Assembly (NCBI RefSeq): GCF_013004595.1
Contig: NZ_JABEMC010000003.1
Span: 310,001-374,000, forward strand
Direction: 5' to 3'
Length of the DNA stretch: 64,000 nucleotides
Origin: Brevibacterium luteolum
GTDB lineage: Bacteria > Actinomycetota > Actinomycetes > Actinomycetales > Brevibacteriaceae
This document shows, in pieces, positions 2,275 to 59,027 of the stretch. Within the stretch, counting starts at the first letter, position 1. Each line of letters begins with the position of its first letter. Below the pieces are notes generated by a model. The model saw nothing but the letters and a program-made list of their open reading frames with translations. It ran no database searches and was not told the origin of the DNA. A program made the position numbers and the translations under genes.

Positions 2275-3267
2275 CTACCCGGCAGCGCGGTGCGGCGGCG
2301 AGCTGATCTCCTCGTACGCGGCCTCCGACTGCCGCAGCGTCTCATAGGCGGCATCGACCGGGTCGAGGGCGATGACATGCCTGCCGTGGGCGAGCAGCCA
2401 GCGCACCAGCCACGCCTGGTCGTAGACCGGCAGGGTGATCGTCACCGTGCCTGGACCATGAGTGTCATACCGTGTCTGGACCGGCAAGTCCTCCACCAAG
2501 CGGGCACCGGTGCTCGTGAGCGACATCGTCACCGTGCCCGAGGCGCCGGCCGGCTGTGTGCGCGAGGTTCCCTCCGCCTCGGGGGCGGTGGCATCGGCAG
2601 GGTCTGCCGGAGACGCGTGCTCCTGGGCGGGCACCGGGCGGATGCGGCGGATGTTGTCGAGGGCGAAGCTGCGCAGCCCGCCGGCGGTGTGGCAGTGGGC
2701 TTCGAGGTACCAGCGGCCCGACAGCCTCAGCGTCAACGGGTCGACGACCCGTTCGGTGAGTTCATCGCGGCTGGGCACATAGTAGGACAGCTGCAGGTCG
2801 TCGCCGCTGGCCAGGGCGTCCTCGACGACGCGTTTGACCTGCGGGTCGACCGGTGGGAGCACGATGTCGAAGCGCTGCCCGGACTCCCCCAGGCTGGCTG
2901 CGGCTGCGAGCTTGTCCTTCGCGCTCTCCACCGCCTCGGCATCGGGCGGATCGAGGGCGAGGATCGTCTCGAGTGCCAGTGTCAGGGTGCCGGCTTCGGC
3001 GCGTGAGAGGCGCACCGGGACGGAGACCTCCTCGGCGTTGGAGACGTAGATGCGGTCGTCCTCCCAGCTGGCTTCGATGAGGTCATCGGGCATGTGCCCG
3101 GGCCGGCCGGAGACGAAGAGCAGCTCCAGATCGTCGATGAGCTCCTCCCGGGTGCATCCGAATGCCTCGGCCACCTCATGAAGCTCAGCACCCGGATTCG
3201 CCGTCAGGTACGGGACCAAGCCGAGCAGCCGGCTGAGCCGCTCAGGTGTCGTCTGCGCCATTGTCAT
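2275..3267 (-). CDS. pafC: WYL-domain transcriptional activator PafC
   Basis: RLSRLLGLVPYL HTH N-terminus, RWYLEAHC and RSFALDNI WYL motifs; start trimmed to MTMAQ. Confidence 0.9.
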   Translation of the reverse strand: MTMAQTTPERLSRLLGLVPYLTANPGAELHEVAEAFGCTREELIDDLELLFVSGRPGHMPDDLIEASWEDDRIYVSNAEEVSVPVRLSRAEAGTLTLALETILALDPPDAEAVESAKDKLAAAASLGESGQRFDIVLPPVDPQVKRVVEDALASGDDLQLSYYVPSRDELTERVVDPLTLRLSGRWYLEAHCHTAGGLRSFALDNIRRIRPVPAQEHASPADPADATAPEAEGTSRTQPAGASGTVTMSLTSTGARLVEDLPVQTRYDTHGPGTVTITLPVYDQAWLVRWLLAHGRHVIALDPVDAAYETLRQSEAAYEEISSPPHRAAG

Positions 3268-4306
3268 CCTCCTCCCCTGCGCCGGCGGGCGAACCCGGGC
3301 CGGACTCACCGGAGACCAGCCCAGTGAGTGCCGAGATCGTCGCCTGCACATGCACGCGGTGGGCTGCGGCGAGGTCACGCGGGCTCATGACCCGCACGCT
3401 GGGGCCGAACTCGGCCAGCGTCGTCGCACACAGCTCCTCATCTTCGTACTCCAGGCTGAAGGTGTCCCAGCCGCGGGCGGTCGTGCCGGTGTGGATGCCC
3501 TCCCGGCGCAGCGGTTCGGCCCGGCCCGGGGCGATCGCGATGACCGCCTGCCTGCGGGTGCCGGCCTCCGGGCCGGGGTCGAAGTGGGCGGCGGCGTCGA
3601 AGCCGGCTGGGATCTCGTAGTCCCCGGCAGTGCGCCTGGGGGCCTTGCGGATCCGGCCCATGATGCGTGAGAGCCGGAAGGTGCGCACTGCCTTCCGGTC
3701 GACATCGCGGCCCATGAGGTAGACGCGGTTGCCGCGGGTCAGCAGCGCATAGGGCTCCAGGGTGCGAGTGGCGGTCTCGCCGCTGGTCTTGCGGTAGGAG
3801 AAGCGCACCGGCAGGCGTTCGCTTGTGACGCTGATGGCGGTGGCGACATCCCCGGGCCAGAACTCCGGGGACGGGGTGACCGACGCCTCGGGGCCGGTGG
3901 CCGGCTGACTGAGCTCGGTGCCGAGGCCGGTGAGCTTGTAGCGGGCGCGTTCGGCCTGCCCGGCTGCCGGTGAGGAGCGCCACCAGTCGGCAGCGACCGA
4001 CAGCGCAGCGGCTTCGGCAGGCGTGAAGTCGATGGCCGGCAGCTCGTAGTCCTCGTTGGTGATCCGGTAGCCGTAGACGGTGTCAGTCGAGCCGATGTCG
4101 GTCCAGTTCGTCGTCGAGATCTCGATCCCCAGCTCGCGCAGCGCGTCCTTGTCGCGGGAGAACATCCGGTCGAAGGCCTCGTCACTCAGGTCGTGATAGC
4201 CGCTGATCTTGCGCCGCAGCGTGTCGCGGTCGACCCAGCCGGAGGCGGCACGCAGGGCGATGAGCAGGTTGAGCAGCCGCTCGGTGGCCTGGCGTATCTG
4301 GTTCAC
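3242..4306 (-). CDS. pafB: WYL-domain transcriptional activator PafB
   Basis: ERLLNLLIAL, FDRMFSRDKDALRELG, RTFRLSRI; paired with pafC. Confidence 0.92.
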   Translation of the reverse strand: MNQIRQATERLLNLLIALRAASGWVDRDTLRRKISGYHDLSDEAFDRMFSRDKDALRELGIEISTTNWTDIGSTDTVYGYRITNEDYELPAIDFTPAEAAALSVAADWWRSSPAAGQAERARYKLTGLGTELSQPATGPEASVTPSPEFWPGDVATAISVTSERLPVRFSYRKTSGETATRTLEPYALLTRGNRVYLMGRDVDRKAVRTFRLSRIMGRIRKAPRRTAGDYEIPAGFDAAAHFDPGPEAGTRRQAVIAIAPGRAEPLRREGIHTGTTARGWDTFSLEYEDEELCATTLAEFGPSVRVMSPRDLAAAHRVHVQATISALTGLVSGESGPGSPAGAGEEDDNGADDT

Positions 4307-16391: not shown

Positions 16392-16413
16392 TGTCAGCGG
16401 TGGCCGGTAGGGT
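16392..16413 (+). promoter_or_regulatory. PafBC-dependent (RecA-NDp-type) promoter of the RecB-like nuclease
   Basis: TGTCAG-N10-TA-GGG-T versus the known TGTCGG-N10-TA-N3-T consensus; ATG 7 nt downstream. Confidence 0.75.
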
Positions 16414-43539: not shown

Positions 43540-43551
43540 CAGGTCCTCCTT

Positions 43552-45123
43552 CTAGGCGTAGCGTCCGGTGATGTGCCAGCGGCCGTGCTCCTTGCACAGC
43601 AGGAAGGCCTGCCCGCAGTCGGTGAGGACCTGCAGCCGCACTCGGTACTGGGCCCGGGCCGGATCCCACCAGCCGGCCTCGACCGGCCAGGCCGAGGAGT
43701 GATCGACGATGCTGAACTCGGCGCCGGACTCCAGCCGTAGGAGCACCGGGGTGCTGTCGAGCCCGCTGGGCCGGGCGATGACGCTCATCCCCTGCCGATC
43801 GAGCAGCTCGACAGGCGCGCGGTCGACGATCATCGGGTGCGGGGCCGGCAGCCGGCCCGGCCACGGGGCCGACGCGCTGCGCTCAGGGCGGGGCTGCTGC
43901 TGCCACGGCGTCCACAGATTCGTCTCCGCAGGCTCCCGGCCGCCCTGCAGCTGGGGCACGCGCACCGCCTCGGGCCCGTAGAGGCCCTGCAGCCGCTCCA
44001 GGGTGTGGGTGACATAGCCCGAGCGCTGGGCGAACAGCGAGGTGTGGGCCTCCAGCGGGGCGAGCAGCTCAGCCGCGGTCAGCGCCAGCGCGCAGACACC
44101 ATCGGCTTCCGCCAGCCCCTCATCGACCGGTTCGGCAGCGGCGGGTGCTGACTGTCCGGCCAGCCAGCCTTCGGCCTGCCAGCGCACCCGGTCGGCGACG
44201 AGGTTCTCGTCCATGAGCTCCAGCCGCCAGGTCCGCTGGCTGCGCTGCCCGCCGGCGGCGACGAGCTCGATCGTCAGGCTCGGGCACACGAGCCCGGCTG
44301 ACCGGATCCCGGTGAACAGCTCAGCGGCAGCGGCACGGGCGTGGAAGGACAGCTCGTCGCCGCGTGTGCTCGGTGGGCTGATCGGCACCTCGATGAGGTG
44401 CTCGCGCTGGCGGACGTGGTCGACCGGCCGGTGGACCGGCAGCCCGCGGGCCAGTCGGTGGGCCTGCACGCCGAGGGTGCCGAAGCGGGTGCGCATCTGC
44501 CCTTCGCTCAGCTGCGCCAGCGCCCCGAGGGTGTCGAGTCCGAGGCGTTCGAAGACGGTGACGAGCTCACCGTAGGTGTGGGCATCGGCATAGGCCAGCG
44601 CGGTCGTCGGCTGGGTGGCGAGGAAGTCGGCGGTCTGCCCGGGCAGCACCCGGGTGGCGGTGCGGGCGGCGAGCATCGCGGCGAAGACCGAATCGGCGAT
44701 GCCGGCGAAGAACTCCCAGCCGGTGGCGTCGGTGACGGTGGTGAGCAGCTCCTCGACCGCGGCGTCCTCACTGGGGTAGGTGCGCGCGAGTGCGGTCAGC
44801 GGGATGCTCACCTCCCCCGGGGCGAGCACGGTGAAGCGGGCGAGGCTGGTTTCGAGCACATCGAGGCCGGTGGCGAAGATCCGCTGGTCGAGGTCCTCGT
44901 CCCAGCCGGTGATGCGCACCTGCGGGCAGCGCAGCTGAGCGGCGCGCTTGTTGATCCCGGTGGTGATGCCGACGGCCCGGGCGGCGGCATTGCAGGAGAC
45001 GATCCGCCCGCCGCGCAGCACGGCGACCGGTTCGTGGGCCGCCCAGCCGTGCGCTTCGGCTGCAGCGGTCGCCGACCAGTCCGGGACCGTGAGCACGAGG
45101 GTCCGCTGGGTCTCAGCCGGCAC
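43552..45123 (-). CDS. imuB: Y-family polymerase-like protein ImuB
   Basis: PDW, CNAAARAVGI, DRVRWQ, WPGRLPAPHP, WPVEAGWWD; sits between imuA and dnaE2. Confidence 0.88.
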   Translation of the reverse strand: MPAETQRTLVLTVPDWSATAAAEAHGWAAHEPVAVLRGGRIVSCNAAARAVGITTGINKRAAQLRCPQVRITGWDEDLDQRIFATGLDVLETSLARFTVLAPGEVSIPLTALARTYPSEDAAVEELLTTVTDATGWEFFAGIADSVFAAMLAARTATRVLPGQTADFLATQPTTALAYADAHTYGELVTVFERLGLDTLGALAQLSEGQMRTRFGTLGVQAHRLARGLPVHRPVDHVRQREHLIEVPISPPSTRGDELSFHARAAAAELFTGIRSAGLVCPSLTIELVAAGGQRSQRTWRLELMDENLVADRVRWQAEGWLAGQSAPAAAEPVDEGLAEADGVCALALTAAELLAPLEAHTSLFAQRSGYVTHTLERLQGLYGPEAVRVPQLQGGREPAETNLWTPWQQQPRPERSASAPWPGRLPAPHPMIVDRAPVELLDRQGMSVIARPSGLDSTPVLLRLESGAEFSIVDHSSAWPVEAGWWDPARAQYRVRLQVLTDCGQAFLLCKEHGRWHITGRYA

Positions 45124-45844
45124 CGTCGATCACCTGGATCTGCGGGTGTGCCGGCCGGCTGGCCACAGCCTCCGCGCCCGAGGCGGTGGGCAGCTGCTGC
45201 ACGCTGGGTGCACCGGGGGTGAGCGGCCAGGTGAGCAGATGCTCGCCGGTGCGCGGATGCCGCACCCGTACGGTGCAGGCCCGCAGCCGTCCGGTGCCTG
45301 CGTGCAGGCCGTCCCAGCCGGCGACGGAGACCTCGCAGCTTTCGCTGCTGCCGGGCATCGGGCCGAGGGCGATGAGGCTGGCGCGGCGTTCGCGAACCTT
45401 GGCGGCTAAGCGCTGACGCTCCTGTGGACTCGGGGCAGCCGGCGGGGCGATGATGAGCAGATCGAAGGTCTCCAGCAGGATCGACACGACCCGCTGCCAG
45501 TCCGCAGGCGGGGTGCGCACATGCACGAAGTGCTCCAGGTCGATGCCGAGCTCAGCCAGTCCGGCGACCGCCAGCTCCGGGGTGTCGACGGCTGCGCACC
45601 AGTGCTGTTCGCGGGTGGACTTCGCTGCAGCCGCACACGCGAAGGACAGCGCGAGCGTGCCGGTGACGCTGAGGATCTCCCCGCGCGGCAGTCCACCGCG
45701 GGTGAAGACCGGGGCCAGCATGCCGTCCACAGGCAGCGGTTCGGGACCGGTGAAGAGCTCGCGCGCAGTCGTGACACCCGGGAGACGGCTGAGCTGCTCT
45801 CTCAGCGTCTGCGGGTCGGCGGCGACGGCATGGTGGACGGACAT
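45113..45844 (-). CDS. imuA: RecA-like ImuA' protein
   Basis: LPV...GGLPRG, WCAAV, RLAAKVRER, GLHAGTGRLR; start placed downstream of the LexA box and -10. Confidence 0.8.
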   Translation of the reverse strand: MSVHHAVAADPQTLREQLSRLPGVTTARELFTGPEPLPVDGMLAPVFTRGGLPRGEILSVTGTLALSFACAAAAKSTREQHWCAAVDTPELAVAGLAELGIDLEHFVHVRTPPADWQRVVSILLETFDLLIIAPPAAPSPQERQRLAAKVRERRASLIALGPMPGSSESCEVSVAGWDGLHAGTGRLRACTVRVRHPRTGEHLLTWPLTPGAPSVQQLPTASGAEAVASRPAHPQIQVIDGAG

Positions 45845-45851
45845 ACCCATA

Positions 45852-45871
45852 ACTATAGAACACCTATTCGA
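45852..45871 (-). promoter_or_regulatory. LexA (SOS) box overlapping the -10 element of imuA
   Basis: Minus strand TCGAATAGGTGTTCTA versus consensus TCGAAC-N4-GTTCGA; TATAGT 7 nt upstream of ATG. Confidence 0.8.
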
Positions 45872-45937
45872 ATGTGAGCAATGCTGTTCGAACGGGTGCA
45901 CAGCACCGGCCTGCTGAGCCGCTAAGCTTAGAACGCC

Positions 45938-46441
45938 ATGAACATCGACATCGTCTTCCACACCCCGGAGATCCCGGGAAACACGGGAAACGCCATCCGC
46001 CTGGCAGCGGTCACCGGAGCGCATCTGCACCTGGTCGAACCCCTCGGATTCGACCTCTCCGATGCCAAGCTGCGCCGGGCCGGACTCGACTACCACGACC
46101 TCGCGCACGTCACCGTCCACCCGGATCTCGCGCACCTGTGGGAGCACCTCGGCGACCGCCGGGTCATCGCCTTCACCACGCACGCACAGACCGGTTTCGG
46201 TGAGATCGCCTACACTGACGGCGATGTGCTCCTGTTCGGCAAGGAGTCGACCGGCCTCGATGACGATGTGCTGGCCGATCCGCATATCGCACAGCAGGTC
46301 AGAATCCCGATGCTGCCGGCGCGCCGGTCGCTCAACCTGGCGAACTCGGCTTCGATTGCGATGTACGAGGCATGGAGACAGCACGAATACGCCGGAGCCG
46401 CCATGGCAGGGGCTGCGGCCGATGGAAAGGAACCCCAATGA
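45938..46441 (+). CDS. trmL: tRNA (cytidine34-2'-O)-methyltransferase
   Basis: PEIPGNTGNAIRL, LRRAGLDY, FGKESTGL, RSLNLANS. Confidence 0.93.
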   Translation: MNIDIVFHTPEIPGNTGNAIRLAAVTGAHLHLVEPLGFDLSDAKLRRAGLDYHDLAHVTVHPDLAHLWEHLGDRRVIAFTTHAQTGFGEIAYTDGDVLLFGKESTGLDDDVLADPHIAQQVRIPMLPARRSLNLANSASIAMYEAWRQHEYAGAAMAGAAADGKEPQ

Positions 46442-47265
46442 CAGCACCTCGCGGCCTGACGGTGGCCGGACTCGATGTCTCCGGCGGCGCCGGCCTCGGC
46501 GCCGATATGAAGATGTTCGAGGAGTACGGCGTCTTCAGCGCAGCGGTCATCACCTGCGTGGTGACCTTCGATCCGGACAACGGCTTCTACCACTCCGCTG
46601 AGTTCCAGGACGCCGACTTCATCCGCCAGCAGCTCGACTCGACCCTGACGATCCACGACTACGACGTCATCAAGTCCGGCATGGTCGGCTCCGTCGACTC
46701 CGCCCTCGTGCTCGCCGACCGGCTGAAGAACAACCACCTGCCCTACGTCTTCGATCCCGTGCTCGTGTGCAAGGGAACGGGCTCGATGGTCGACCTCAAG
46801 GACCTGTTCATCGAGAACCTCGTGCCCCTGGCCACCGTCATCACCCCGAACCTCGAAGAGGCCGCAACCCTCGTCGGGGCCGCCGAGCTTACGAACGTCG
46901 ATGAGATGGCAGAGGCGGCCAAGGCGATCCACGCGATGGGCGCTGACAACGTCGTCGTCAAGGGCGGGGCGCGTCTGGACACCGACGAGGCCATCGACGT
47001 CCTCTACGACGGGCAGACCCTGACGACCTTCAGCAGCAAGAAGATCACCAACGACCTCGTCAACGGTGCCGGCTGCTCCTTCGCCGCAGCGATCGCCGCT
47101 GGCCTGGCGACCGGCTTGTCCGTGCCCGAGGCGGTGCGCAAGTCCAAGGAGACCGTCGCCCACGGCATCGGTGCCGCCGTTCCGAACGCCACCGGCGTCG
47201 GCTCACTGCTGCACCCGGCCGCCCGCTGCTACCGGCATGAGGGCATCGTCGTCGAACAGCACTGA
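46438..47265 (+). CDS. PfkB-family HMP/pyridoxal kinase (ThiD/PdxK-like)
   Basis: TVAGLDVSGGAGLGAD, DPVLVCKG, ITPNLEEA, VKGG, GAGCSFAAA. Confidence 0.85.
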   Translation: MTAPRGLTVAGLDVSGGAGLGADMKMFEEYGVFSAAVITCVVTFDPDNGFYHSAEFQDADFIRQQLDSTLTIHDYDVIKSGMVGSVDSALVLADRLKNNHLPYVFDPVLVCKGTGSMVDLKDLFIENLVPLATVITPNLEEAATLVGAAELTNVDEMAEAAKAIHAMGADNVVVKGGARLDTDEAIDVLYDGQTLTTFSSKKITNDLVNGAGCSFAAAIAAGLATGLSVPEAVRKSKETVAHGIGAAVPNATGVGSLLHPAARCYRHEGIVVEQH

Positions 47266-47929: not shown

Positions 47930-48493
47930 ATGTCATCCTGGACGATCCTCTCCCATGCCCCTGCCCCCGTCGAGACGGTTCCAGCCCGCGAGCACCCCGA
48001 GCTGCTCGCCGCTCCCACCGCCGAGGCGGTGGCCGGGTTCCCGGCCGAGCATCCGGTCGACGTGTTCGCCATCGATCCGGACCTGGCTGACACTGCCGCG
48101 CTGACCGAAGCATATGGGCTCAAGGACCAGCATTCGGCCAACTGCGTCATCGTCGCAGGTTCCCGGGCCGGTGAGGAGCGCATCGCCGCTTGCATGGTCC
48201 TCGCCCACACTCGCGCTGATGTCAACAAGCGGGTGCGCAAGCTGCTCGATGTGCGCAAGGCCTCGTTCATGGACCAGGAGCGGGCGTGTGCCGAATCGGG
48301 TATGGAGTACGGCGGCATCGGACCCTTCGGTCTGCCGGCCGGCTACCGGATCCTCATCGACTCACGCATCGTCACCGAACCCGAGGTGGTGATCGGCTCG
48401 GGCATCCGCGGCTCGAAGATCATCCTCTCCGGTGAAACACTGGCAGCAATCCCCGGCGCCGAGGTGGTCGAGGACCTCGCGATCGAGGTCTGA
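47930..48493 (+). CDS. YbaK/EbsC aminoacyl-tRNA editing family protein
   Basis: IDPDLADTA, SANCVIV, GMEYGGIGP, GSGIRGSK. Confidence 0.88.
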   Translation: MSSWTILSHAPAPVETVPAREHPELLAAPTAEAVAGFPAEHPVDVFAIDPDLADTAALTEAYGLKDQHSANCVIVAGSRAGEERIAACMVLAHTRADVNKRVRKLLDVRKASFMDQERACAESGMEYGGIGPFGLPAGYRILIDSRIVTEPEVVIGSGIRGSKIILSGETLAAIPGAEVVEDLAIEV

Positions 48494-48524
48494 CCACCCG
48501 CGGCAAGCCGGGCTCCGCGGGAGC

Positions 48525-49361
48525 TCAGCCGTCGAGCTGCCTGGCAGCGGTGGTCAGGACGAAGTCGATGAGTGGCTGGTACAGCTGCGGGACGACATCG
48601 TCATCGAGCGGCACACTGACGTCGACCTGGCCCTGCGCCTCGGCGACGAAGAGGGCAGGGTCGTTGCAGTCGGCGAACCCGATCGAACGCAACCCGCGGG
48701 TGCCGGCACAGCCGGCCCACCCGTGATCGGCGACGACGAGGTCCGGTGCCTCTTCTCCCCTGGTCTTCAGCTCATCGAGCAGCGCTGCCATCGGTTCGGC
48801 TAGGTGTGTATGCGGCACGCCGCCGTGCTGGTGCCATACCCACACGCCGCTGATGCGCCGCAGGTCCCCGCCGATGTCCGGGACTGCGATGTACCCGTCA
48901 GGTGAGATCACCTGGGCACCGTTTTCGGCTGCCCACGCGGCGAAGGCCATGTGCACCGGCAGCATCCCGCCGGGATGTCCAGTGGCGAAGAGGATTTGGG
49001 CCTCAGCCGCGACCGCCGAACCGAGGACATCACCAAAGCGCATCAGCGCTTCGATGCAGCGTTCGGTGGAGATTGTGTCGACACCTTCGGTGAATTCCGG
49101 ATCCGGACGCAGACCGACCTTCTCCACCATGAGCGCGAAGACCTTCTCGTAATCCCATTCCTGGGTCAGCTCGACACCGAAGTCGAACTGCCGCTCCTGA
49201 TCGAGGAACCGGTGGATGTGGGAGAGGTTGTTCTCCCGCGGAGTGCCGACCTCGCCGGTGATCCGCCCGGCCTCCAGGGCCGCAGCCAGCTCCGGGTGCT
49301 CCTCGCACAGCGGTCCGGGTACGTTTCCGGTGGCTGCCGGCACACTCTGCTCCTCGGTCAC
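48525..49361 (-). CDS. Actinobacterial putative phosphatase family protein
   Basis: TPRENNL, ATGHPG, HTH, ADHGWAG, ADCNDPALFV, VPLDD motifs. Confidence 0.7.
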   Translation of the reverse strand: MTEEQSVPAATGNVPGPLCEEHPELAAALEAGRITGEVGTPRENNLSHIHRFLDQERQFDFGVELTQEWDYEKVFALMVEKVGLRPDPEFTEGVDTISTERCIEALMRFGDVLGSAVAAEAQILFATGHPGGMLPVHMAFAAWAAENGAQVISPDGYIAVPDIGGDLRRISGVWVWHQHGGVPHTHLAEPMAALLDELKTRGEEAPDLVVADHGWAGCAGTRGLRSIGFADCNDPALFVAEAQGQVDVSVPLDDDVVPQLYQPLIDFVLTTAARQLDG

Positions 49362-49476
49362 AGACGTCTCCCTTTTTTGTCAGCAATGCCAGAGGTCAGC
49401 CTATCGAAACAGAGCGCTACCAGCTTGGCGCTGTGGCCCAATAGCGACTGTACCGTCAGCACTCTACGTGCTGACC

Positions 49477-52400
49477 TCAGTCTCCAGACTCGCCATTCCC
49501 TGCGGTAAGTCCCCGGAATCGCTCAATGAATCCGGAGAGCGCATTGATGACTCGTTTCTTTTTGTCGCCGTGGTTGGACTCGCGGTTGAATCGTGACACG
49601 GGCGGCAGGATGCGGATGATCTCGGTGCCTGTCGTGCGCAAATGTCCGTCTCGGAACGCCGCATCCACGAACGACTGCGTCTCCTCCCGCTTAAGCTTGT
49701 GCGCTTCGATGAGGTCTTGAAGCTCAGACTCGCGCTTCGCGGCGATGTACGCCTGCCACTGCTCATCGACCGCGCCCTGCAGCGATACCGACTCGACGAA
49801 GTCCTCCACGAGGTCGCGCTTACTGCGCAGGGTCGGGCTCGCATCGACAGCGCGCGTGATCTCGGCACGGACTTCCTTGTCGTCACCGTCGCCCTTTTCG
49901 GTACGGAGCTTTTCGACGAGCATGAGGATGTAGTCGACGTTGATCTCTACCTGCTTGACGAGCTCGATCTCGAACACCACGTCATCATTGATGACTTCTC
50001 TGTCGCCGTCGCGGTCTCGCGTGTACTCGTCGCGGAGGCGCAGGTAGATGCTGGTGTAGTCCTGACGACGTCGCTCAGTGAGTGGGTCGTTGCCACAGAA
50101 GTCGTCGAACGAGCTGAGGATATTCCGCAGCCGCAGGATCGCGCCGAAAAGCTGGATGAAGCCCTTCTGCGCCTGCTCCCCTACGATCTGCTGCCCGATC
50201 GGGAAGTACGTGAGCAGTTCGGTGACCTTGTCGGCATACTCGCCGTAGTAATCCCCGTACGGTTTCAGCAGGACGACGCCGCGGGCGTCCTTGTTGCCGA
50301 ACAGTTCCAGCGCGGCGTTCGTTTCTTCCTCGAGGTCGCGGAAGGCGACGATGTTGCCATAGGTCTTCACCGAGTTGAGGATGCGATTCGTGCGCGAGTA
50401 CGCCTGGATCAGGCCGTGGGCGCGCAGGTTCTTGTCGACGAACAGCGTGTTCAGTGTGGTCGCGTCGAAGCCGGTGAGGAACATGTTCACCACGATCACC
50501 AGGTCGATCTCGCGGTTCTTCATCCGCTGCGACAGGTCCTTGTAGTAGTTCTGGAACCGGTCGGCGCTCGTGTCGTAGCTGGTCCCGAACATGTCGTTGT
50601 AGTCCTGAATCGCGTCTTCCAGGAACGAGCGCGTGTCGAGGTCGAGCGCATCGGTGTCGAAAGCTTCATCATCGAGGATTCCGTCGGCTTCGGCCTCGTT
50701 CGCGCCGTAGCTGAAGATCAGCCCGATCTTCAGCCGCTTGTCCGGTGGCAGCTCCTCCATCTGCAGCTGAAACTGGTTGTAGTAGCGGCGTGCGGCATCG
50801 ATCGACGCGGTAGCGAACAGCGCGTTGAATCCGCGAACCCGCTTCCGCTCCGTGAGTGCCTCCGCCTGACGCCGGCCCCGCACCGAGTCGGCAACGTTCG
50901 TCACGACGCCGTGTTCGTAGCTCGATGCGCGCTTCGTCTTCTGATCGAAGTGCTCCAGAATGTAAGCCACGACTTGCCGGATCCGGCGCACATCCAGAAG
51001 AGCTCGCTCACGGTCGATCGCTGACACCTGTGAGTCGTCGGGGTTCCCGACCTTAATGGTGTTGATGTAGTCGATCCGGAACGGCAGCACGTTCTTGTCT
51101 GTGATGGCGTCGACGATCGTGTACGTGTGCAACTTGTCGCCGAACGCCTGCTCAGTCGTGCGCAACTGAGGGTTGCCGCCGCTGCCGGCGTTGGCGGCGA
51201 AGATCGGCGTGCCGGTGAACCCGAACAGGTTGTACTTCTTGAACGCGCGTGTGATGTCGGTGTGCATGTCGCCGAACTGCGACCGGTGGCACTCATCGAA
51301 GATGATCACCGCGTGGCCCGAGAATACCGCGTGACCCTTGTTCGCCTTGATGAACGTCGACAGCTTCTGGATCGTTGTGATGATGATCCGCGCACCGGGG
51401 TCCTCGAGCTGCTTCTTCAACACCGCCGTCGACGTGTTCGAGTTCGCCGCGCCCTTCTCGAACCGGTCGTACTCTCGCATCGTTTGGTAGTCGAGGTCCT
51501 TGCGGTCAACGACGAACAGCACCTTGTCCACACTCGGCATCTTCGATGCGAGCTGCGCTGCCTTGAACGAGGTGAGCGTCTTGCCCGAGCCGGTGGTGTG
51601 CCAGACGTATCCTCCGGCGTCGAGTGTGCCGAGCGTCTTGTAGTTCGTCGAGATCTGGATCTTCTGCAGCATCCGCTCGGTCGCGACGATCTGGTATGGC
51701 CGCATCACCAGCAGGTCGCGGTCCGCGGTGAGCACGCAGTACTTCGTCAGGATGTTCAACAGCGAGTGCTTCGCGAAGAACGTCTTCACGAACGCTGTCA
51801 GCTCGGTGATCGGCTTGTTGTTCGCATCGGCCCACCAGCTGGTGAACTCGAACGAGTTACTCGTCTTCCTGCCCTTGCCGGCACCGCCAGACTTCTTCTG
51901 CTCGGCCAGGTGCCTGTTGCGAGTGCTGTTGGAGTAGTACTTCGTGAGCGTGCCGTTACTGATCACGAACAATTGCACGTACTCGAACAGGCCCGAGCCC
52001 GCCCAAAAGCTGTCGCGCTGGTACCGGTTGATCTGGTTGAAAGCCTCCCGGATGTCCACCCCGCGACGCTTCAACTCAATGTGCACCATCGGCAGCCCGT
52101 TGACCAGCACGGTCACGTCGTAGCGATTGGCGTACCTCGCCCCACCCTCGCCAGCGTCACCCTCGCCCCGACCGATCTCGTACTGATTGATGACCTGCAG
52201 CCGATTGTTGTGGATATTCGTCTTGTCGACCAGCGTGACGTTCTTCGTCGTCCCGTCATCGCGCCTGAGGATCTGGACGTGATCCTCCTGCACGCGCGCG
52301 GTCTTCTCGACGATGCCGTCGTTCGCACCTGCGATCTTCGTCGTGAAGAACTGCTCCCACTCAGCATCCGAGAAGGTCATTCTATTGACCTTCTCCAGCT

Positions 52401-52611
52401 GCCTGCGCAGGTTCGCGACCAGCTCAGCCTCGGACGTGATCGGCAAGTAGTCGTATGCTTGCCCTCGGAGGAGCCGAACCATCTCCTTCTCGAGCGCGGA
52501 CTCCGACTGATACGCATCAGCCTGCAACGGATCGTGCACATACTCAGCGACGACCGTGCTCTCCGACGAGACAGCAATCGGATCGTACGTGCGCGCCGGT
52601 GCATCGCTCAC
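49477..52611 (-). CDS. hsdR: Type I restriction endonuclease subunit R (EcoR124I-like)
   Basis: RYDVTVLVNGLPMVHIELK, WHTTGSGKT, DECHRSQFG, FTGTP, MFLTGFD, QAYSRTNR. Confidence 0.96.
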   Translation of the reverse strand: MSDAPARTYDPIAVSSESTVVAEYVHDPLQADAYQSESALEKEMVRLLRGQAYDYLPITSEAELVANLRRQLEKVNRMTFSDAEWEQFFTTKIAGANDGIVEKTARVQEDHVQILRRDDGTTKNVTLVDKTNIHNNRLQVINQYEIGRGEGDAGEGGARYANRYDVTVLVNGLPMVHIELKRRGVDIREAFNQINRYQRDSFWAGSGLFEYVQLFVISNGTLTKYYSNSTRNRHLAEQKKSGGAGKGRKTSNSFEFTSWWADANNKPITELTAFVKTFFAKHSLLNILTKYCVLTADRDLLVMRPYQIVATERMLQKIQISTNYKTLGTLDAGGYVWHTTGSGKTLTSFKAAQLASKMPSVDKVLFVVDRKDLDYQTMREYDRFEKGAANSNTSTAVLKKQLEDPGARIIITTIQKLSTFIKANKGHAVFSGHAVIIFDECHRSQFGDMHTDITRAFKKYNLFGFTGTPIFAANAGSGGNPQLRTTEQAFGDKLHTYTIVDAITDKNVLPFRIDYINTIKVGNPDDSQVSAIDRERALLDVRRIRQVVAYILEHFDQKTKRASSYEHGVVTNVADSVRGRRQAEALTERKRVRGFNALFATASIDAARRYYNQFQLQMEELPPDKRLKIGLIFSYGANEAEADGILDDEAFDTDALDLDTRSFLEDAIQDYNDMFGTSYDTSADRFQNYYKDLSQRMKNREIDLVIVVNMFLTGFDATTLNTLFVDKNLRAHGLIQAYSRTNRILNSVKTYGNIVAFRDLEEETNAALELFGNKDARGVVLLKPYGDYYGEYADKVTELLTYFPIGQQIVGEQAQKGFIQLFGAILRLRNILSSFDDFCGNDPLTERRRQDYTSIYLRLRDEYTRDRDGDREVINDDVVFEIELVKQVEINVDYILMLVEKLRTEKGDGDDKEVRAEITRAVDASPTLRSKRDLVEDFVESVSLQGAVDEQWQAYIAAKRESELQDLIEAHKLKREETQSFVDAAFRDGHLRTTGTEIIRILPPVSRFNRESNHGDKKKRVINALSGFIERFRGLTAGNGESGD

Positions 52612-53870
52612 GACGGTAGCTCCTTGAAGGCCAGCAGACGGTCGCGGTAGTACTCGTACTGCTTGCGACGGGCGGCAAGCTCGGCAGGGAGACCGATACT
52701 GATGTCGTTGGTGAGAGCATCGAAGCGATCCATGATGTGAACGACTCGTTCTTGGTCACTAACGCTGGGAACTGGGACCTCGAACTCCCAGAGCTTCCTA
52801 CTGTCAAGCGACGCCACAGATCCGCCGATACGCCGGACGCGACGGAGCATCTCGGCGCGCTGTCCCCGGATGGCGTGGAACAGATAGCGCGGAAGAACTC
52901 CGTCCGCAGCCACCACCGCTTTCAAATCCTGGTTCAAAGCAGCAGGACGTGTGAGAAACGAGACTGGAAGTGTGTGATCAAGAATGCTGGATCGGGTCAC
53001 AATCACCACGGCGTGCCTTGGAACGAGCTTCGTTGATGAGCCCGCCACTGCTGCTTCCGTAATGTGATCCTCCGTGTCGGATATGGTCGAATTTCCCATG
53101 TCCTTCGGCGATACCCATGGGACCGTGCCATCGATCCAGTACTCTGGCTTGCTCTTCGAAGGCGTACCGCCACCATACCAGCGTCCAAGGTCACGCATCG
53201 AGACCATTCGTGCACCGTCAGATACCACACCTTCGAAGAGAGACGATGTGTAGTACAAATATTGGGCGCGCCGGGCTTCCAGCTCCGCTTTCAGCTCCGC
53301 TTCCAGCTCCGCTTCCAGCTGAGTGAACTTATCCAATACTCGCACGATCTCGCGCTGCACCTCGAGAGGCGGCAAGGGGACGCGGAACCCACGCATGACG
53401 CTGGCGTTCAAGTTATTGATCGTCGAGGTCGAGAGCGAGCGATCGAGGTGAGTTTTGAATCGCTTACCCGTGAGAAGATGGAACAGAAATCGACTTTCCA
53501 CACGCGCATCAGTCGTGCGAAGGACCGCCATGAAGCCACCAAACGTCTGCCCGATCTCCTCGCGAATGTATGCGACCTTGCCTATGTGATCGCGGCTACC
53601 GCTACCAGCACAGATGAGTGTGTCGCCAGCTCGCAGGCGCTGTGCGTCGCGAACACGAACATGACTTGAGACACGCTTCACGTCCTCAAAGTTGAGCGTG
53701 TTGGAGGCGAGCGTGATGTTGTTGGCGCGGAGCACCTGAATCTCCCCTGCCGAATCCTCGTCGTTCTTGCTGTAAGTGATGCCACGCACGTAGTCGGCGA
53801 TATCGAGAACGCCAGTATGCTCCACCCCGTCCGGGCAAAGTTCCTGGATCAGGTCATCGATGCCGCTCAC
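52608..53870 (-). CDS. hsdS: Type I restriction-modification specificity subunit
   Basis: Two TRDs, PLPPLEVQREIV, EAEL repeat spacer, KQYEYYRDRLL; visibly lower GC than the flanks. Confidence 0.95.
   Translation of the reverse strand: MSGIDDLIQELCPDGVEHTGVLDIADYVRGITYSKNDEDSAGEIQVLRANNITLASNTLNFEDVKRVSSHVRVRDAQRLRAGDTLICAGSGSRDHIGKVAYIREEIGQTFGGFMAVLRTTDARVESRFLFHLLTGKRFKTHLDRSLSTSTINNLNASVMRGFRVPLPPLEVQREIVRVLDKFTQLEAELEAELKAELEARRAQYLYYTSSLFEGVVSDGARMVSMRDLGRWYGGGTPSKSKPEYWIDGTVPWVSPKDMGNSTISDTEDHITEAAVAGSSTKLVPRHAVVIVTRSSILDHTLPVSFLTRPAALNQDLKAVVAADGVLPRYLFHAIRGQRAEMLRRVRRIGGSVASLDSRKLWEFEVPVPSVSDQERVVHIMDRFDALTNDISIGLPAELAARRKQYEYYRDRLLAFKELPS
53275..53320. repeat. 12-bp tandem repeat (about 3.8 copies) encoding the EAEL/KAEL spacer of HsdS
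   Basis: GCTTCCAGCTCC GCTTTCAGCTCC GCTTCCAGCTCC GCTTCCAGCT. Confidence 0.9.
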
Positions 53871-55435
53871 TTGGAGCCCTCCAGATCTGCCACGATATCG
53901 TCGATCGCTACACGGAGCTCGGCCTGGCGCGCGACGATGCGCGCGATCTCGGCGTTCAGCTCGACGATGTCGACCTCCTCGCGTGTATCCTCCGCCTCCA
54001 CGTACGACGACACCGCGATGTTGTAGTCATTGGCTGCGATGTCTTCGTTGCCCACGATGGTGGCGAAGTGGTCCTGCGGCTCGCGCGTCGTGAACGCTTC
54101 GAGGATCCGCCCCCGGTGCTCCTCGAGCAGCTTGTTCTTGTTGCCGACGCGTTTGAACTCGGCTGACGCGTCGATGAACAGTACGTCGCTGGTCTTCTTC
54201 GACTTCTTCAGCACGAGGATGCAGGTCGCGATCGTTGTACCAAAGAACAGGTCCGGCGGCAGCTGGATGACGGCATCAATGTAGTTGTTGTCGACGAGGT
54301 ACTGGCGAATCTTCTTCTCCGCTCCCCCGCGGTACAGAACGCCAGGGAACTCAACGATCGCGGCCGTGCCGTTGACGGCGAGCCAGCTGAGCATGTGCAT
54401 CGTGAATGCCAAGTCGGCCTTCGACTTCGGCGCGAGGACACCAGCCGGCGCGAACCGCTCGTCGTTGATCAAGAGCGGGTTGGCATCGCCCTCCCACTTG
54501 ATGGAGTAGGGCGGGTTGGAAACGATCGCCTCGAACGGCTCATCGTCCCAGTGGGCGGGGTCGAGGAGCGTGTCACCATGGGCGAGGTTGAAGTCGGCAT
54601 AGTTCACGTCGTGCAGGAACATGTTGATCCGCGCGAGGTTGTACGTGGTCAGGTTGATCTCCTGACCGTAGAACCCCTGGGGGACGTTGTTCTTGCCGAG
54701 CACCTTGTCGAACTTCAGCAGCAGCGAACCCGAGCCGACGGCCGGGTCGTAGACCTTATTGACCTGCTCCTTGCCGACGACCGTGATGCGCGCCAGCAGC
54801 TCGGAGACCTCTTGCGGCGTGTAATACTCACCACCGGACTTTCCCGCATTGGCGGCGTACATCTGCATCAGGTACTCGTAGGCATCGCCAAACAGGTCGA
54901 TCGAGTTGTCCTCCCACCGCCCCAGCGGCAGATCGCCGATCGCGTCGAGCAACTTCACCAGCTTCTGATTGCGCTTGGCAACAGTTGAGCCGAGCTTGCT
55001 GCTGTTCACATCCAGGTCGTCGAACAGTCCCTTGATGTCGTCCTCACTGTCTGTACCCAGCGCCGACGCCTCGATGTTCTTGAAGACCCGCTCGAGCGTC
55101 TCATTGAGGTTCTCATCCCGCGCCGCGCGCGCCCGGACGTTGACAAACAGGTCGGACGGCAGAATGTAGAACCCCTTCTCCGCGACAACTTCGTCGCGCG
55201 CGAATTCCGCCTCCGAGTCAGACATCCTGGTGTAGTCGAACGAAGCGTCCCCTGCTTCGTGCTCGCCACTGTTGATGTAGGCGGTGAGGTTCTCTGAGAT
55301 GAACCGATAGAACAGCATCCCCAGCACGTAGGACTTGAAGTCCCACCCGTCTACGCTTCCGCGCAGGTCGTTAGCGATGCGCCAGATGGTCTTGTGCAGC
55401 TCGGTACGCTGCGCCTCTTTGGTGGTCGGTGCCAC
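53867..55435 (-). CDS. hsdM: Type I DNA methyltransferase subunit M (m6A)
   Basis: IWRIANDLRG, YDPAVGSGSLL, NPPY; GTG start preceded by GGAGGAG. Confidence 0.96.
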   Translation of the reverse strand: MAPTTKEAQRTELHKTIWRIANDLRGSVDGWDFKSYVLGMLFYRFISENLTAYINSGEHEAGDASFDYTRMSDSEAEFARDEVVAEKGFYILPSDLFVNVRARAARDENLNETLERVFKNIEASALGTDSEDDIKGLFDDLDVNSSKLGSTVAKRNQKLVKLLDAIGDLPLGRWEDNSIDLFGDAYEYLMQMYAANAGKSGGEYYTPQEVSELLARITVVGKEQVNKVYDPAVGSGSLLLKFDKVLGKNNVPQGFYGQEINLTTYNLARINMFLHDVNYADFNLAHGDTLLDPAHWDDEPFEAIVSNPPYSIKWEGDANPLLINDERFAPAGVLAPKSKADLAFTMHMLSWLAVNGTAAIVEFPGVLYRGGAEKKIRQYLVDNNYIDAVIQLPPDLFFGTTIATCILVLKKSKKTSDVLFIDASAEFKRVGNKNKLLEEHRGRILEAFTTREPQDHFATIVGNEDIAANDYNIAVSSYVEAEDTREEVDIVELNAEIARIVARQAELRVAIDDIVADLEGSK

Positions 55436-55488
55436 GGGCTCTCTCCTCCGCGCCACAGCGCAATAACAATGTTCCGTTGTTTGCTCTT

Positions 55489-55510
55489 ACCCTACCGGGC
55501 ACCACGGACA
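55489..55510 (-). promoter_or_regulatory. PafBC/RecA-NDp-like promoter upstream of hsdM
   Basis: Minus strand TGTCCG-TGGTGCCCGG-TA-GGG-T; exact N10 spacing; close match to the motif at 16392-16413. Confidence 0.6.
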
Positions 55511-55623
55511 TCCGACGGAAGGTTGGGGCCCGTGTTCGACGCGCACGGTTCGCGCCGAACGCGGATGAACTGAATAGTCGCCGCCCGCGCCTTGCCCTGA
55601 CACCGAAGCTATTGCGATCTCGG

Positions 55624-56517
55624 TCACCGCGTCGCGTAGAACGCTACCGCTGAACTCGCTGCGACGTTGAGCGAGTCCACACCGTGCATCATCGGGATCG
55701 TCACCCGTGCATCAAGACGGCTGTCCGTGCCGCGCTTGAGGCCATCGCCTTCGGTGCCGAAGACGAGCGCCAGCCGCTGATGCTCGGCAGCCACGAGCTC
55801 ATCGAGGGTGATCGCGCCTTCACCCAGTGACATGCCAGCGACGTAGAAGCCTGCGTCTTTGAGCAGGTCGATGCCGGCTGGCCACGGGTCGATGCGCGTC
55901 CACGGGATCTGGAAGACCGTGCCCATCGACACGCGGATCGACCGCCGGTACATCGGATCGGCACACTCCGGTGTCACCAGCACGGCATCGACTCCGAGTG
56001 CCGCAGCTGACCGGAAGGCGGCCCCGACGTTGGTGTGATCGACCAATCCTTCGAACACTGCGATCCGGCACCGGGGCGCACCAGCGTCGAGCACCTCAGC
56101 GACCACCTCGGCGGCGGTGCGCGGTGCCGGCCGGGCCATCGCCGCCAGCGCCCCGCGGTGCAGGTGGAAGCCGGTGAGTTCTTCGATCCGGGCTTCGGTG
56201 CCGATGTAGATCGGCCCGGTCGTCTCGGTGAGGATGTCGGTCATGCCGGCGAACCACTTGCGGCTCATGAGGAAGGACTGCGGCTCATGTCCGGCGGCCA
56301 GGGCACGGCGGATGATCTTCGTGCTCTCGGCCAGGTAGATGCCCCATTCGGGTTCGGCCGCTGAGCGCAGCCGAACATCAGTCAGCTGCGTGTAGGCGGC
56401 CAGCTCCGGGGCGTCGAGATCATCGAAGAAGCGCAGCCGGTCGGCATTGATGCCGCATTCGTCGGCCAGCGCACGGATCTCAGCTTCGGTGGGTTCGGCC
56501 TTGCGCGGGGTGTTCAT
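55624..56517 (-). CDS. TrmH/SpoU family RNA methyltransferase
   Basis: DHTNVGAAFRSAAALG, RRSIRVSMG, GTEGDGL, DSLNVAAS. Confidence 0.92.
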   Translation of the reverse strand: MNTPRKAEPTEAEIRALADECGINADRLRFFDDLDAPELAAYTQLTDVRLRSAAEPEWGIYLAESTKIIRRALAAGHEPQSFLMSRKWFAGMTDILTETTGPIYIGTEARIEELTGFHLHRGALAAMARPAPRTAAEVVAEVLDAGAPRCRIAVFEGLVDHTNVGAAFRSAAALGVDAVLVTPECADPMYRRSIRVSMGTVFQIPWTRIDPWPAGIDLLKDAGFYVAGMSLGEGAITLDELVAAEHQRLALVFGTEGDGLKRGTDSRLDARVTIPMMHGVDSLNVAASSAVAFYATR

Positions 56518-56539
56518 GATGGGGTTCGTCGTTTCTGGC

Positions 56540-57358
56540 TCACATCTGCAGGATGTTCCACAGTGCCACCAGGCCGAGGATGACGATGACGCTGCGCAGC
56601 AGCACCGGTGAGAACTTCCGGCCCACCCGCGCTCCGAGGTAGCCGCCGATGAGCGAGCCGGCAGCGATGAGACCGGCGGCCATCCAGTTGATGCGGTCGA
56701 AGCCGACGATGACGTAGATGCTGGCCGCGACCGTGTTGACAACCAGGACGAGCACGTTCTTCGCGCCGTTGATGCGCTGCAGGGTCTCCGGCAGCAGCAT
56801 GCCGAGCAGCGCGATGAGGATGATGCCCTGGGCGGCGGCGAAGTATCCGCCGTAGACGGCTGTGGCGTAGACGGCGATGAACACGGCGATGTGCCGACCG
56901 ATCGACATCGACGGCGGTCCGGCTGGCCCGGCATCGTCGAGTGCCGGTGCGGCTTGGTCGGCTGAGCGCATCGCCCGGTCGCGCAGCAGTCGTTGGAGCA
57001 TCGGCTGGAAGATCACGAGCAGCAGGGCGAGCACGAGCAGCACCGGCACGATCGTGATGAACGCATCCTCGGGCAGGTGCAGCAGCAGATACGCACCGGT
57101 GAGCGCGCCGAGCAGGCTGGCGGGGATGAGCTGGAGCATCCGCTTCTTCTGCCCGGCCAGCTCCGTGCGGTAGCCGAACGAGGAGGCGATGTTGCCGGGG
57201 ATGAGGCCCACGGCATTGCTCATCGTCGCCGTAACCGGCGGCACGCCGAAGGCGACGAGAGCCGGGAAGGTGATGAGGGTGCCGGAGCCGACGATCGCGT
57301 TGATCCCTCCGGCGCCGACGCCGGCGAGCAGCGTCAGCAGGATGTGATGCAGTTCCAT
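56540..57358 (-). CDS. Sulfite exporter TauE/SafE family protein
   Basis: AGGINAIVGSGTLITFPAL, YGGYFAAAQG, NGAKN. Confidence 0.9.
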   Translation of the reverse strand: MELHHILLTLLAGVGAGGINAIVGSGTLITFPALVAFGVPPVTATMSNAVGLIPGNIASSFGYRTELAGQKKRMLQLIPASLLGALTGAYLLLHLPEDAFITIVPVLLVLALLLVIFQPMLQRLLRDRAMRSADQAAPALDDAGPAGPPSMSIGRHIAVFIAVYATAVYGGYFAAAQGIILIALLGMLLPETLQRINGAKNVLVLVVNTVAASIYVIVGFDRINWMAAGLIAAGSLIGGYLGARVGRKFSPVLLRSVIVILGLVALWNILQM

Positions 57359-57367
57359 GCCGGCGGC

Positions 57368-58153
57368 TCAGTACCGTGCCTGGGCGTGGTAGCGGCCGTC
57401 CTCCACTCCGATGCGGACAGGCACCGAGAACGTCTCCGAGAGGTTCTCTGCCGTCAGGGTCTCCTCGATCGGCCCGGCGGCCACGGCGTCGCCGTCCTTA
57501 AGCAGGAGCGCATGCGTGATGCCCTGCGGGATCTCCTCGACGTGGTGGGTGACCATGAGGGTTGTCGGTGCGTAGCGGGCGGAGAGGATCTCGGTCAGCG
57601 CCTGCAGCAGCTCTTCGCGCCCGCCGAGGTCGAGTCCGCTGGCCGGCTCGTCGAGCAGCAGCAGCTCAGGGTCGGTCATGAGTGCGCGGGCGATCTGCAC
57701 GCGCTTGCGCTCACCTTCGGACAGGCTGCCGAAGCGGCGTTCGCTCATCTTCTCCATCCCGAAGGCTGCCAGCAGGTCCTCGGCCCGGGAGGTGTCGACC
57801 TCGTCATAGGCCTCGGTCCAGCGGCCGAGCACGCCGTAGGCGGCGGTGAGGATGATGTCGATGACCTTCTCGGAGTTCGGCATGCGCGCAGCCAGATGCT
57901 GGGAGGCATACCCGATGCGCGGGCGCAGTTCGAAGACGTCGACGCGCCCGAGGCGGTGGCTGAGGATGTCGACGGAGCCGGAGCTGGGGTGCATGCGCCC
58001 GGAGGCCAGTTCGAGCAGCGTGGTCTTGCCGGCTCCGTTGGGACCCAGGATCGTCCAATGCTGCCCTTCGCTCACCTGCAGGGACAGACCGTTAAGAAGG
58101 AGGTTCTCCCCACGGCGGACACGGACATCGTCAAGGACCAGAACATCGCTCAT
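57368..58153 (-). CDS. ABC transporter ATP-binding protein
   Basis: GPNGAGKT, LSEGERKR, LLLDEP. Confidence 0.92.
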   Translation of the reverse strand: MSDVLVLDDVRVRRGENLLLNGLSLQVSEGQHWTILGPNGAGKTTLLELASGRMHPSSGSVDILSHRLGRVDVFELRPRIGYASQHLAARMPNSEKVIDIILTAAYGVLGRWTEAYDEVDTSRAEDLLAAFGMEKMSERRFGSLSEGERKRVQIARALMTDPELLLLDEPASGLDLGGREELLQALTEILSARYAPTTLMVTHHVEEIPQGITHALLLKDGDAVAAGPIEETLTAENLSETFSVPVRIGVEDGRYHAQARY

Positions 58154-58223
58154 AGACCAAACCTTAGTACAGAACAGACTGCCGTTCCTCGCCCCTCCAG
58201 GGGCATGTTCTACAGTGTGCACA

Positions 58224-59027
58224 ATGTCCGCTCACCCCCGCACCGAACTCGATGCGACCCTGCCGAGCCTGCTGTTCGCGCTCACCGCCAGCGCGTGGCT
58301 GGCCGGCCGGGCGAGCCCTGATGACTGCGCTGAGGCGTATCTCACATCCGGGCACCCGGTGCCGCTGCTGATGGCCGATGATGCCCTCGATCCCGCCGCC
58401 GAGGTGCCGGCTGGGATGCTGCTGTCCCTGCCCAGGCTGTGGGCGGCTGGCATCGACCGGATCCGCTGTGTGCTCATCCATCCGAGCCTGCCGATCACCG
58501 TGCCGAAGGTCGACCGGGCCCACCGCCGGCTGCTGGCCGGCGCCCAGTCGGTCGCGGTCGCCGAAGCAGGTGGCCAGGCGCGTGCGCTCATCGTCATCGA
58601 CGCCGAGGCGGCGATGCGCTTCATCCCGTGCGCCCCGGTGCGTTCAGCCGGCCTCGGGGCGGTCAGTGCCGCCGAGGCGTCGCGTGAGCTGCGCCAGGCG
58701 ACGATGGAGGCGCTGGCGACTGTCGAGGCCTTACCCGAGGTGCCGGCTGGGATTGGCGACTGGCAGTGGCGGGACTGGCAGGCCGAGCTCACTGGCCCAC
58801 CGGCCGCCGCCGAGGCGGTGGCCGCGTTCTTACCCGACCCGGCCGATGCCCAGCAGCTCATCACCGCGCTCGAGATCCACGAGGCGATGCGCAGCGTGCT
58901 CGTCCCGGCAGCCGTGCAGCCCGCGCAGCTCGGAGCCGCGCTGGCCCGCGTCCACGCCGCCGCTATCGAGGTTGTCACTGCGGTGACCGCCGAGGCCCCT
59001 GCACCCAGGCAAGGCTCGGCTCCCTGA
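58224..59027 (+). CDS. Hypothetical Ala-rich protein
   Basis: Fills the gap between the ABC ATPase and serB; TACAGT 7 nt before ATG; SAWLAGRASPDD motif. Confidence 0.6.
   Translation: MSAHPRTELDATLPSLLFALTASAWLAGRASPDDCAEAYLTSGHPVPLLMADDALDPAAEVPAGMLLSLPRLWAAGIDRIRCVLIHPSLPITVPKVDRAHRRLLAGAQSVAVAEAGGQARALIVIDAEAAMRFIPCAPVRSAGLGAVSAAEASRELRQATMEALATVEALPEVPAGIGDWQWRDWQAELTGPPAAAEAVAAFLPDPADAQQLITALEIHEAMRSVLVPAAVQPAQLGAALARVHAAAIEVVTAVTAEAPAPRQGSAP

Follow-up and report, generated by a model that had tools for sequence, protein, structure and literature searches.

A predicted PafBC-type promoter precedes a type I restriction-modification operon in Brevibacterium luteolum

A 64,000-nucleotide (nt) stretch of Brevibacterium luteolum DNA, hereafter the window, carries on its minus strand a type I restriction-modification (R-M) operon whose promoter resembles those controlled by PafBC, the DNA damage regulator of mycobacteria. 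The operon comprises hsdM, encoding the methyltransferase subunit (53867..55435; PF02384 and PF12161, TIGR00497 above cut-off, with DPAVGSG and NPPY motifs); hsdS, encoding the specificity subunit (52608..53870; PF01420 in two stretches, PADLOC Specificity_I), whose start overlaps the hsdM stop; and hsdR, encoding an EcoR124-like restriction and motor subunit (49477..52611; PF04313, PF18766, PF22679 and PF12008, TIGR00348 above cut-off), whose start overlaps the hsdS stop. The longest open reading frame (ORF) of hsdM starts at 55456, and we preferred the GTG at 55435, which lies behind a GGAGGAG ribosome-binding site (RBS). All three genes are full length and without internal stops, and their translations contain methylase, nuclease, Walker A and DECH motor motifs, identified by eye. 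The best Protein Data Bank matches of HsdR are HsdR chains, including EcoR124II R, with E about 1e-235. By gene content this is an intact EcoR124-like type I R-M system, with predicted methylation and restriction activities. Like the EcoR124I/II-type (type IC) enzymes, its HsdR matches the EcoR124 HsdR structures and has an EcoR124_C domain; unlike them, the genes are ordered hsdM-hsdS-hsdR in one overlapping unit behind a PafBC-type promoter. The GC content of the operon is 58-61%, versus 67% for the genome.

Upstream of hsdM, the minus strand reads ATGTCCGTGGTGCCCGGTAGGGT, which holds TGTCCG at 55510-55505 and TAGGGT at 55494-55489. With their 10-nt spacer these correspond to the -26 element and the -10 hexamer of a PafBC-type (RecA-NDp) promoter (55489..55510, minus strand), for which the published consensus is tGTCgg(N10)tA(N3)T; in it, the GTC is recognised by PafB residues R46 and R50, and the SigA -10 element makes up the 3' half (PMC8635444). 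The original prediction, which took the hsdM promoter for a damage-responsive element of this type, had placed the motif about 55 nt before the hsdM start, and we measured 54 nt on the minus strand between the end of the motif and the GTG at 55435. Only two matches to TGTCNG-N10-TA-N3-T occur in the window, at 55510-55489 (minus) and 16392-16413 (plus), against an expectation of 0.23, and two matches were reached in 2 of 100 shuffles. The second PafBC-type promoter (16392..16413, plus strand) is followed after 7 nt by an in-frame ATG belonging to a PD-(D/E)XK (RecB-like) nuclease gene (PF12705); direct comparison confirmed that the two promoters are identical at 20 of 23 positions, as had been claimed, and both matched the geometry said to be common to them. 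TGTCCG had also been flagged as departing from the consensus by one base, but this does not make the site weak: positions 5 and 6 of the consensus are lower-case, meaning at most 50% conserved (PMC8635444), and TGTCCG is a normal local variant because host sbcD, xseA, dnaE and holA use it. In several motif-bearing host genes that appear leaderless (uvrA, sbcD, holA and the PD-(D/E)XK gene) the start codon falls 6-7 nt after the motif, and we therefore predict that hsdM transcription starts at 55481..55482 (minus strand). Of 23 sequencing runs screened for RNA evidence, none contained as much as half of the words searched for (best share 0.17). No sigma70-type -35/-10 promoter was found on the minus strand. 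The SOS box is CGAAC-N4-GTTCG; none was present at up to two mismatches in the 300 nt upstream of hsdM, while the recA and lexA boxes are perfect, and we rejected LexA/SOS control of hsdM.

Both regulator genes are encoded on the minus strand at 2275-4306, inside the pup/proteasome locus: pafB at 3242..4306 (WYL and WCX domains) and pafC at 2275..3378 in its longest ORF, the true start probably being further in (PF19187, HTH_PafC, E 3e-38; WYL and WCX domains). That pafBC lie in the same window as the promoter had been offered as a point in favour of the link; they are indeed encoded there, but their closeness is incidental, because homologous operons bear the motif at unrelated loci. Judged by eye against the residues that PMC8635444 lists, the spacing of M. 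smegmatis E42, A43, R46, R50, K52 and R56 is retained in the recognition helix of PafB. PafBC is reported to be activated by single-stranded DNA (ssDNA) (PMC11804915), and in mycobacteria ssDNA-bound PafBC adapts RNA polymerase (RNAP) with SigA to promoters that combine a -26 GTC with a -10 hexamer (PMC8635444, PMC11804915). The host resembles the mycobacterial PafBC/RecA-NDp regulon, as described in PMC8635444, PMC11804915, PMC8223512 and PMC5656591, in promoter geometry, in the core targets recA, uvrA, sbcD, xseA and dnaE, in the location of pafBC in the pup-proteasome locus and in the retained DNA-reading arginines. The difference lies in the target, here a type I R-M operon gained by horizontal transfer; the mycobacterial targets described in the sources compared are repair, recombination and redox genes.

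We counted 38 strict sites in the whole host genome, compared with 7-11 in four order-4 Markov simulations, and they precede the NCBIfam-named recA, uvrA, sbcD, xseA, dnaE and holA; radA is preceded by a near-match. When positions were scored with a matrix built from six repair and replication genes, which had not been trained on the hsdM site, that site ranked 16th of 5,931,522; it ranked 12th genome-wide with a 17-site matrix, also not trained on it, which took in uncharacterised genes and with which the six-gene matrix agreed. The score thus stands far above the genome background. For the relaxed motif (TGTC-N12-TA-N3-T, scored within 200 nt upstream), the background in the host genome was 37 of 2453 genes; among operon-first genes it was 31 of 1562 (∼2%), with gene counts from a crude gene caller. 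A chance match in a GC-rich genome is hardly credible on these numbers and is already largely refuted. About a quarter of the 38 strict sites (7-11) would be expected by chance, and some matches are intragenic, two of them within an AAA_13 ORF; but the hsdM site is 16th among 5.9 million positions, has the correct strand and distance, and is retained in homologues at ∼20 times the genome background.

HsdM homologues were drawn from the genus, the order and the best 80 of 587 candidates in a species collection. Loci were required to show at least 50% identity and to match at the N terminus, which excluded more distant and truncated ones and left 133; we then removed 17 near-duplicate upstream regions, among them L087, which was later restored. 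PafC was scored in every host, and hosts were called strong when it matched at E<=1e-12. The relaxed motif was present at 26 of 67 loci in strong-PafC hosts and at 4 of 50 in other hosts, and the strict motif at 18 of 67 and 3 of 50, respectively. The 26 of 67, set against the genome background of ∼2%, bear out the conservation in homologous operons on which the original prediction had staked its case. As controls, in 69 actinomycete upstream regions, an earlier grouping made partly by taxonomy, the wrong spacings of 10, 11, 13 and 14 gave 0, 0, 1 and 0 matches, the reverse strand gave 1 and coding DNA gave 0. In an unbiased count of 76,181 dyads, TGTC-N12-TA came out on top, in 31 of the 69 regions versus 1.6 expected. 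Positions that had played no part in selecting the sites also match the older published consensus tTGTCRgtg (R 21/27, G 20/27, T 16/27, G 18/27), and 18 of 29 sites lie 72-87 nt upstream of hsdM. The motif is retained at loci with unrelated neighbours, including L029, L030 and L100, which lack the upstream spoU gene described below, and it therefore belongs to the cassette and not to the slot beside spoU. In the three closest orthologues, which occupy the same slot (HsdM 92-96% identical), TGTC and TA-N3-T are kept while the spacer and the upstream DNA have changed.

These data also bear on whether something other than PafBC reads the element, for example a regulator resembling ClpR/ClgR or a different WYL protein, or whether it is simply a SigA promoter in which the TGTC is incidental. 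We consider this very unlikely. The title of an older paper does credit a ClpR-like protein with recognizing the motif, and TA-N3-T alone is a SigA -10 element, found in 24 of 35 non-actinobacterial upstream regions. TGTC, however, is enriched at a single spacing only, and chromatin immunoprecipitation sequencing, pull-down and cryo-electron microscopy data tie this geometry to PafB R46 and R50 (PMC8635444), residues that are kept in the window PafB.

We extended the comparison to other defence families. An order-wide HsdM_N set gave 87 matches in 151 genomes. We examined 65 of these matches, setting aside 17 that the close set already contained, 4 from a two-methylase system and 1 at a contig edge; the 65 were not dereplicated, and many are operon-internal. 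The motif was present within 250 nt in 7 of these 65 (reverse strand 1, wrong spacings 0-1), and the 7 loci represent at least three lineages, the two full-length proteins among them being 28% identical to the window HsdM. Nearly the same promoter and leader precede two different HsdM lineages at L178 (genome G025) and L227 (G195), which suggests that a promoter-leader block has been swapped between R-M systems. For Wadjet, where we took the best 30 of 46 jetA (PF11855) matches and removed 2 duplicates, the motif was found in 12 of 28, at 63-117 nt, and all three controls gave 0. Among BREX systems it preceded brxA in 3 of 6, and a control regulator, CsoR, gave 0 of 30 (best 30 matches). Binomial tails against the 2% background were small for hsdM, jetA and brxA, but they overstate the case because kin are not independent.

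Given these results, we put at roughly 0.75 the probability that ssDNA-activated PafBC adapts RNAP-SigA to the hsdM promoter and lifts hsdM-hsdS-hsdR transcription above its basal level. The ground for this reading, which is built from sequence comparison, is that the hsdM promoter is of the type preceding host recA, uvrA, sbcD, xseA and dnaE. PafBC would be activated by ssDNA arising from damage or from an invading element, possibly the ssDNA of a phage or plasmid. Transcription of the whole R-M operon would then rise from the start at 55481-55482, adding to a basal level that PafBC itself or readthrough from spoU may supply, and the cell would hold more methylase and restriction enzyme during DNA stress. 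PafBC promoters can add basal expression, as adnA expression is reported to be lower without pafC in unstressed cells (PMC8682763).

A number of results weigh against control of the operon by PafBC or against its wider reach. The motif is missing in 41 of the 67 strong-PafC hosts, and of 8 further homologues from other actinomycete orders only 1 has it, 2 of the 8 duplicating earlier rows. Most non-actinobacterial homologues form one clade, and well-supported branches of the FastTree tree (124 rows; L078 was skipped for an early stop) leave only 3 independent host-motif pairs, which lend no support (sign test p 1). On the same tree, the motif label changes 23 times versus a shuffled mean of 27.8. 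Because of this clade structure, the contrast between PafC hosts and others is descriptive only. Four motif-bearing loci lie in hosts with weak or no PafC: L068 and L123, where weak PafC matches have E over the cut-off; L087, whose host G404 has no PafC match, yet its recA promoter carries the motif; and L142, in a Saccharimonadota genome with no PafC match, where hsdM has both the motif and a leader hairpin. L142 may have been acquired recently from an actinobacterium, or may have been binned in error. A protein search for PafB in five weak-PafC genomes, which had no positive control, found nothing. Since the recA promoters of 2 of these 5 genomes carry the motif, small-genome hosts without a PafC match need not lack the protein. 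Two candidate families showed no enrichment and were rejected: Cas3 had 2 of 30 (30 of 34 matches) with 2 also on the reverse strand, which is background, and Mrr, mostly operon-internal, had 0 of 13. Moreover, no terminator-like site was found on the minus strand across 48400-58500, and none between spoU and hsdM, so readthrough from spoU may give a basal hsd transcript and could mask induction. Finally, more hsd transcript need not mean more restriction, because type I restriction in E. coli is alleviated after DNA damage (PMC3874165).

The flanks of the operon bear on this readthrough. Upstream is a core spoU/TrmH-family methylase gene (55624..56520, start approximate, minus strand; PF00588), 113 nt from hsdM and on the same strand, and downstream a core PF15698 'phosphatase' gene (48525..49361, minus strand). 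In 8 of 19 relatives' loci the PF15698 match starts within 240 nt of the spoU stop, and we therefore regard the hsd operon as an acquired cassette in a variable slot. One could then suppose that the cassette inherited from its donor a real PafBC-type promoter that is minor in this host, with readthrough from the spoU operon supplying most hsd transcript. The proximity of spoU with no terminator-like site in between, the changing cargo of the slot among relatives, the motif-less majority of strong-PafC hosts and the 23 changes among 124 tree rows all fit this account. It is distinctly unlikely nonetheless: the hsdM site is within the genome's top 16, the three same-slot orthologues kept TGTC and TA-N3-T through change in the surrounding DNA, and the motif persists at L029, L030 and L100 without spoU. 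In relatives, the spoU-phosphatase slot is empty or holds other cargo, such as a RhuM-family gene matching PADLOC PDC-S23/S05 at L003 and L007; directly after the spoU stop, L007 and L010 have an (A/C)GTC-N12-TA-N3-T site.

If PafBC does drive the hsdM promoter, the outcome could still be self-protection, in which extra HsdM and HsdS remethylate sites that repair and recombination have left unmodified, HsdR is damped post-translationally and phage resistance stays flat. This alternative shares the promoter mechanism with induction of the whole system and differs in outcome only, so that the confidences in the two overlap; we consider it rather unlikely. The order of the operon, with hsdM and hsdS first, would suit it, but no intergenic gap separates hsdR from hsdS, and the two are coupled. 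The motif also precedes Wadjet jetA, in 12 of 28 loci, and Wadjet is not known to have a methylase, for which reason, of the two purposes named in the original prediction, we favour the anti-invader one over remethylation. That DNA damage alleviates restriction by type I enzymes is established (PMC3874165), as self-protection would have it; in Acinetobacter, however, induction of a type I R-M system by the regulator DdaA raised phage resistance after mitomycin C (PMC12392091).

Returning to PafBC as an activator of the intact R-M system, the families examined point to a broader role. Defences against viruses and plasmids are likely switched on by PafBC as well. Because its promoter moves together with the cassette and is seen again in front of several families of defence systems, that promoter is likely a plug-in switch of general use for defence genes in actinobacteria. 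The strongest form of this idea, that PafBC is a phylum-level immune switch acting through a portable promoter on several type I R-M lineages, Wadjet, BREX and candidate single-gene systems, is a tentative proposal to which we give a little less than an even chance. Were it true, ssDNA from incoming plasmids, replicating phages or induced prophages would turn on many unrelated defences together, and new defence genes could be sought through the motif. At issue is how bacteria time costly defence genes. In one published case, confined to a single gammaproteobacterial family, the global WYL damage sensor DdaA controls R-M and CRISPR. If PafBC did likewise in actinobacteria by a different mechanism, sigma adaptation, and reached R-M, Wadjet and BREX, the principle would be a recurring one. 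Such control further predicts that phage susceptibility and transformation efficiency of actinomycetes change under DNA-damaging treatments.

A 2025 paper by Rafique (ACS Infect Dis) reportedly concerns pafBC in mycobacteriophage resistance. We found no paper placing R-M, Wadjet or BREX under PafBC in the literature compared, to which the full regulon tables of Muller 2018 (Cell Rep), which may already list defence genes, did not belong, and R-M terms were absent from one supplementary file of PMC8682763 and from the main text of PMC8151990. Control of defence by a damage sensor is itself already published for the WYL activator DdaA. DdaA, a chromosomal damage-response activator of Moraxellaceae, has its motif in 27.2% of Acinetobacter R-M promoters, and both type I R-M induction and better phage defence after mitomycin C were shown experimentally (PMC12392091), whereas the PafBC-hsd link is computational. 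The regulator, the motif and the phylum all differ from those of the window, and the DdaA site lies ∼50 bp upstream of where transcription begins, unlike a sigma adaptation site (PMC12392091). DdaA moreover marks 90.3% of CRISPR-Cas systems (PMC12392091), whereas the PafBC-type motif before cas3 is at background (2 of 30). The WYL repressors BrxR and CapW, the latter reported to sense ssDNA, and RptR, which represses a type I R-M system in E. coli and controls type I R-M islands (PMC12255303), resemble the window operon in that defence operons are under transcriptional control. They are, however, repressors encoded beside the system, whereas the window island is without a regulator gene and its proposed regulator is the host's global activator. 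The view, mentioned in the original prediction, that type I R-M systems are simply constitutive is dated, since DdaA activates one (PMC12392091) and RptR represses one (PMC12255303).

Two further arrangements were seen near defence genes. In M. smegmatis, MSMEG_1252 is PafBC-affected and the motif precedes MSMEG_1251 (PMC5656591 Table S1), and the next genes, MSMEG_1253/1254, are a type III Druantia anti-phage system (PMC13316683); MSMEG_1251-1252 and the Druantia genes adjoin, a connection made in the consulted portions of neither paper. At L219 (genome G193), ∼1.9 kb upstream of an hsdM, a short train of genes has a strong motif at its head; its first ORF (124 amino acids) looks TIR-like and its second caspase-like, both by eye.

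The hsdM leader contains a short, GC-rich hairpin (55463-55448; element 55443..55463, minus strand) placed directly against the RBS AGGAG at 55447-55443. A stem of at least 5 bp directly before the RBS was present in 10 of 28 motif-bearing hsdM leaders versus a shuffle mean of 1.1 (max 5), kin again not being independent, and in 17 of 543 host-genome genes with AGGAG. The stem sequence varies among the window and L023, L024, L039, L057, L100, L102, L117 and L121. Judged from these leaders, the hairpin may tune hsdM translation or mRNA stability. The longer leaders at L057, L109, L142 and L246 seem, by eye, to include a short upstream ORF that ends in a stop overlapping the start of hsdM.

Elsewhere in the host genome, the AAA_13 gene at G000:C1 was rejected as a PafBC target, as both motif matches lie inside its ORF. 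Strict motifs occur at two other defence-like genes: at G000:C5:1677 (L090), with a 1224-amino-acid YobI-type NTPase that partially matches Tmn, and at G000:C1:242549 (L091), with a helicase-sigma70 fusion that partially matches PbeA/MzaA. Some of the top-scoring copies in the genome are borne by DUF222-HNH genes (C1:530190, C1:184052 and C12:314599; L093, L094 and L096), and a similar motif-bearing DUF222-HNH gene lies at C12:214879. An rRNA adenine dimethylase gene of the Erm/KsgA family (PF00398) at G000:C12:315694 (L096:1959-2837) has a strict motif ∼136 nt upstream, which may be chance. Within the window, an imuA-like/imuB/dnaE2-type mutagenesis cassette occupies 40216-46447 on the minus strand (PF00817, DNA polymerase III alpha domains), and upstream of it is an SOS-like box with two mismatches.

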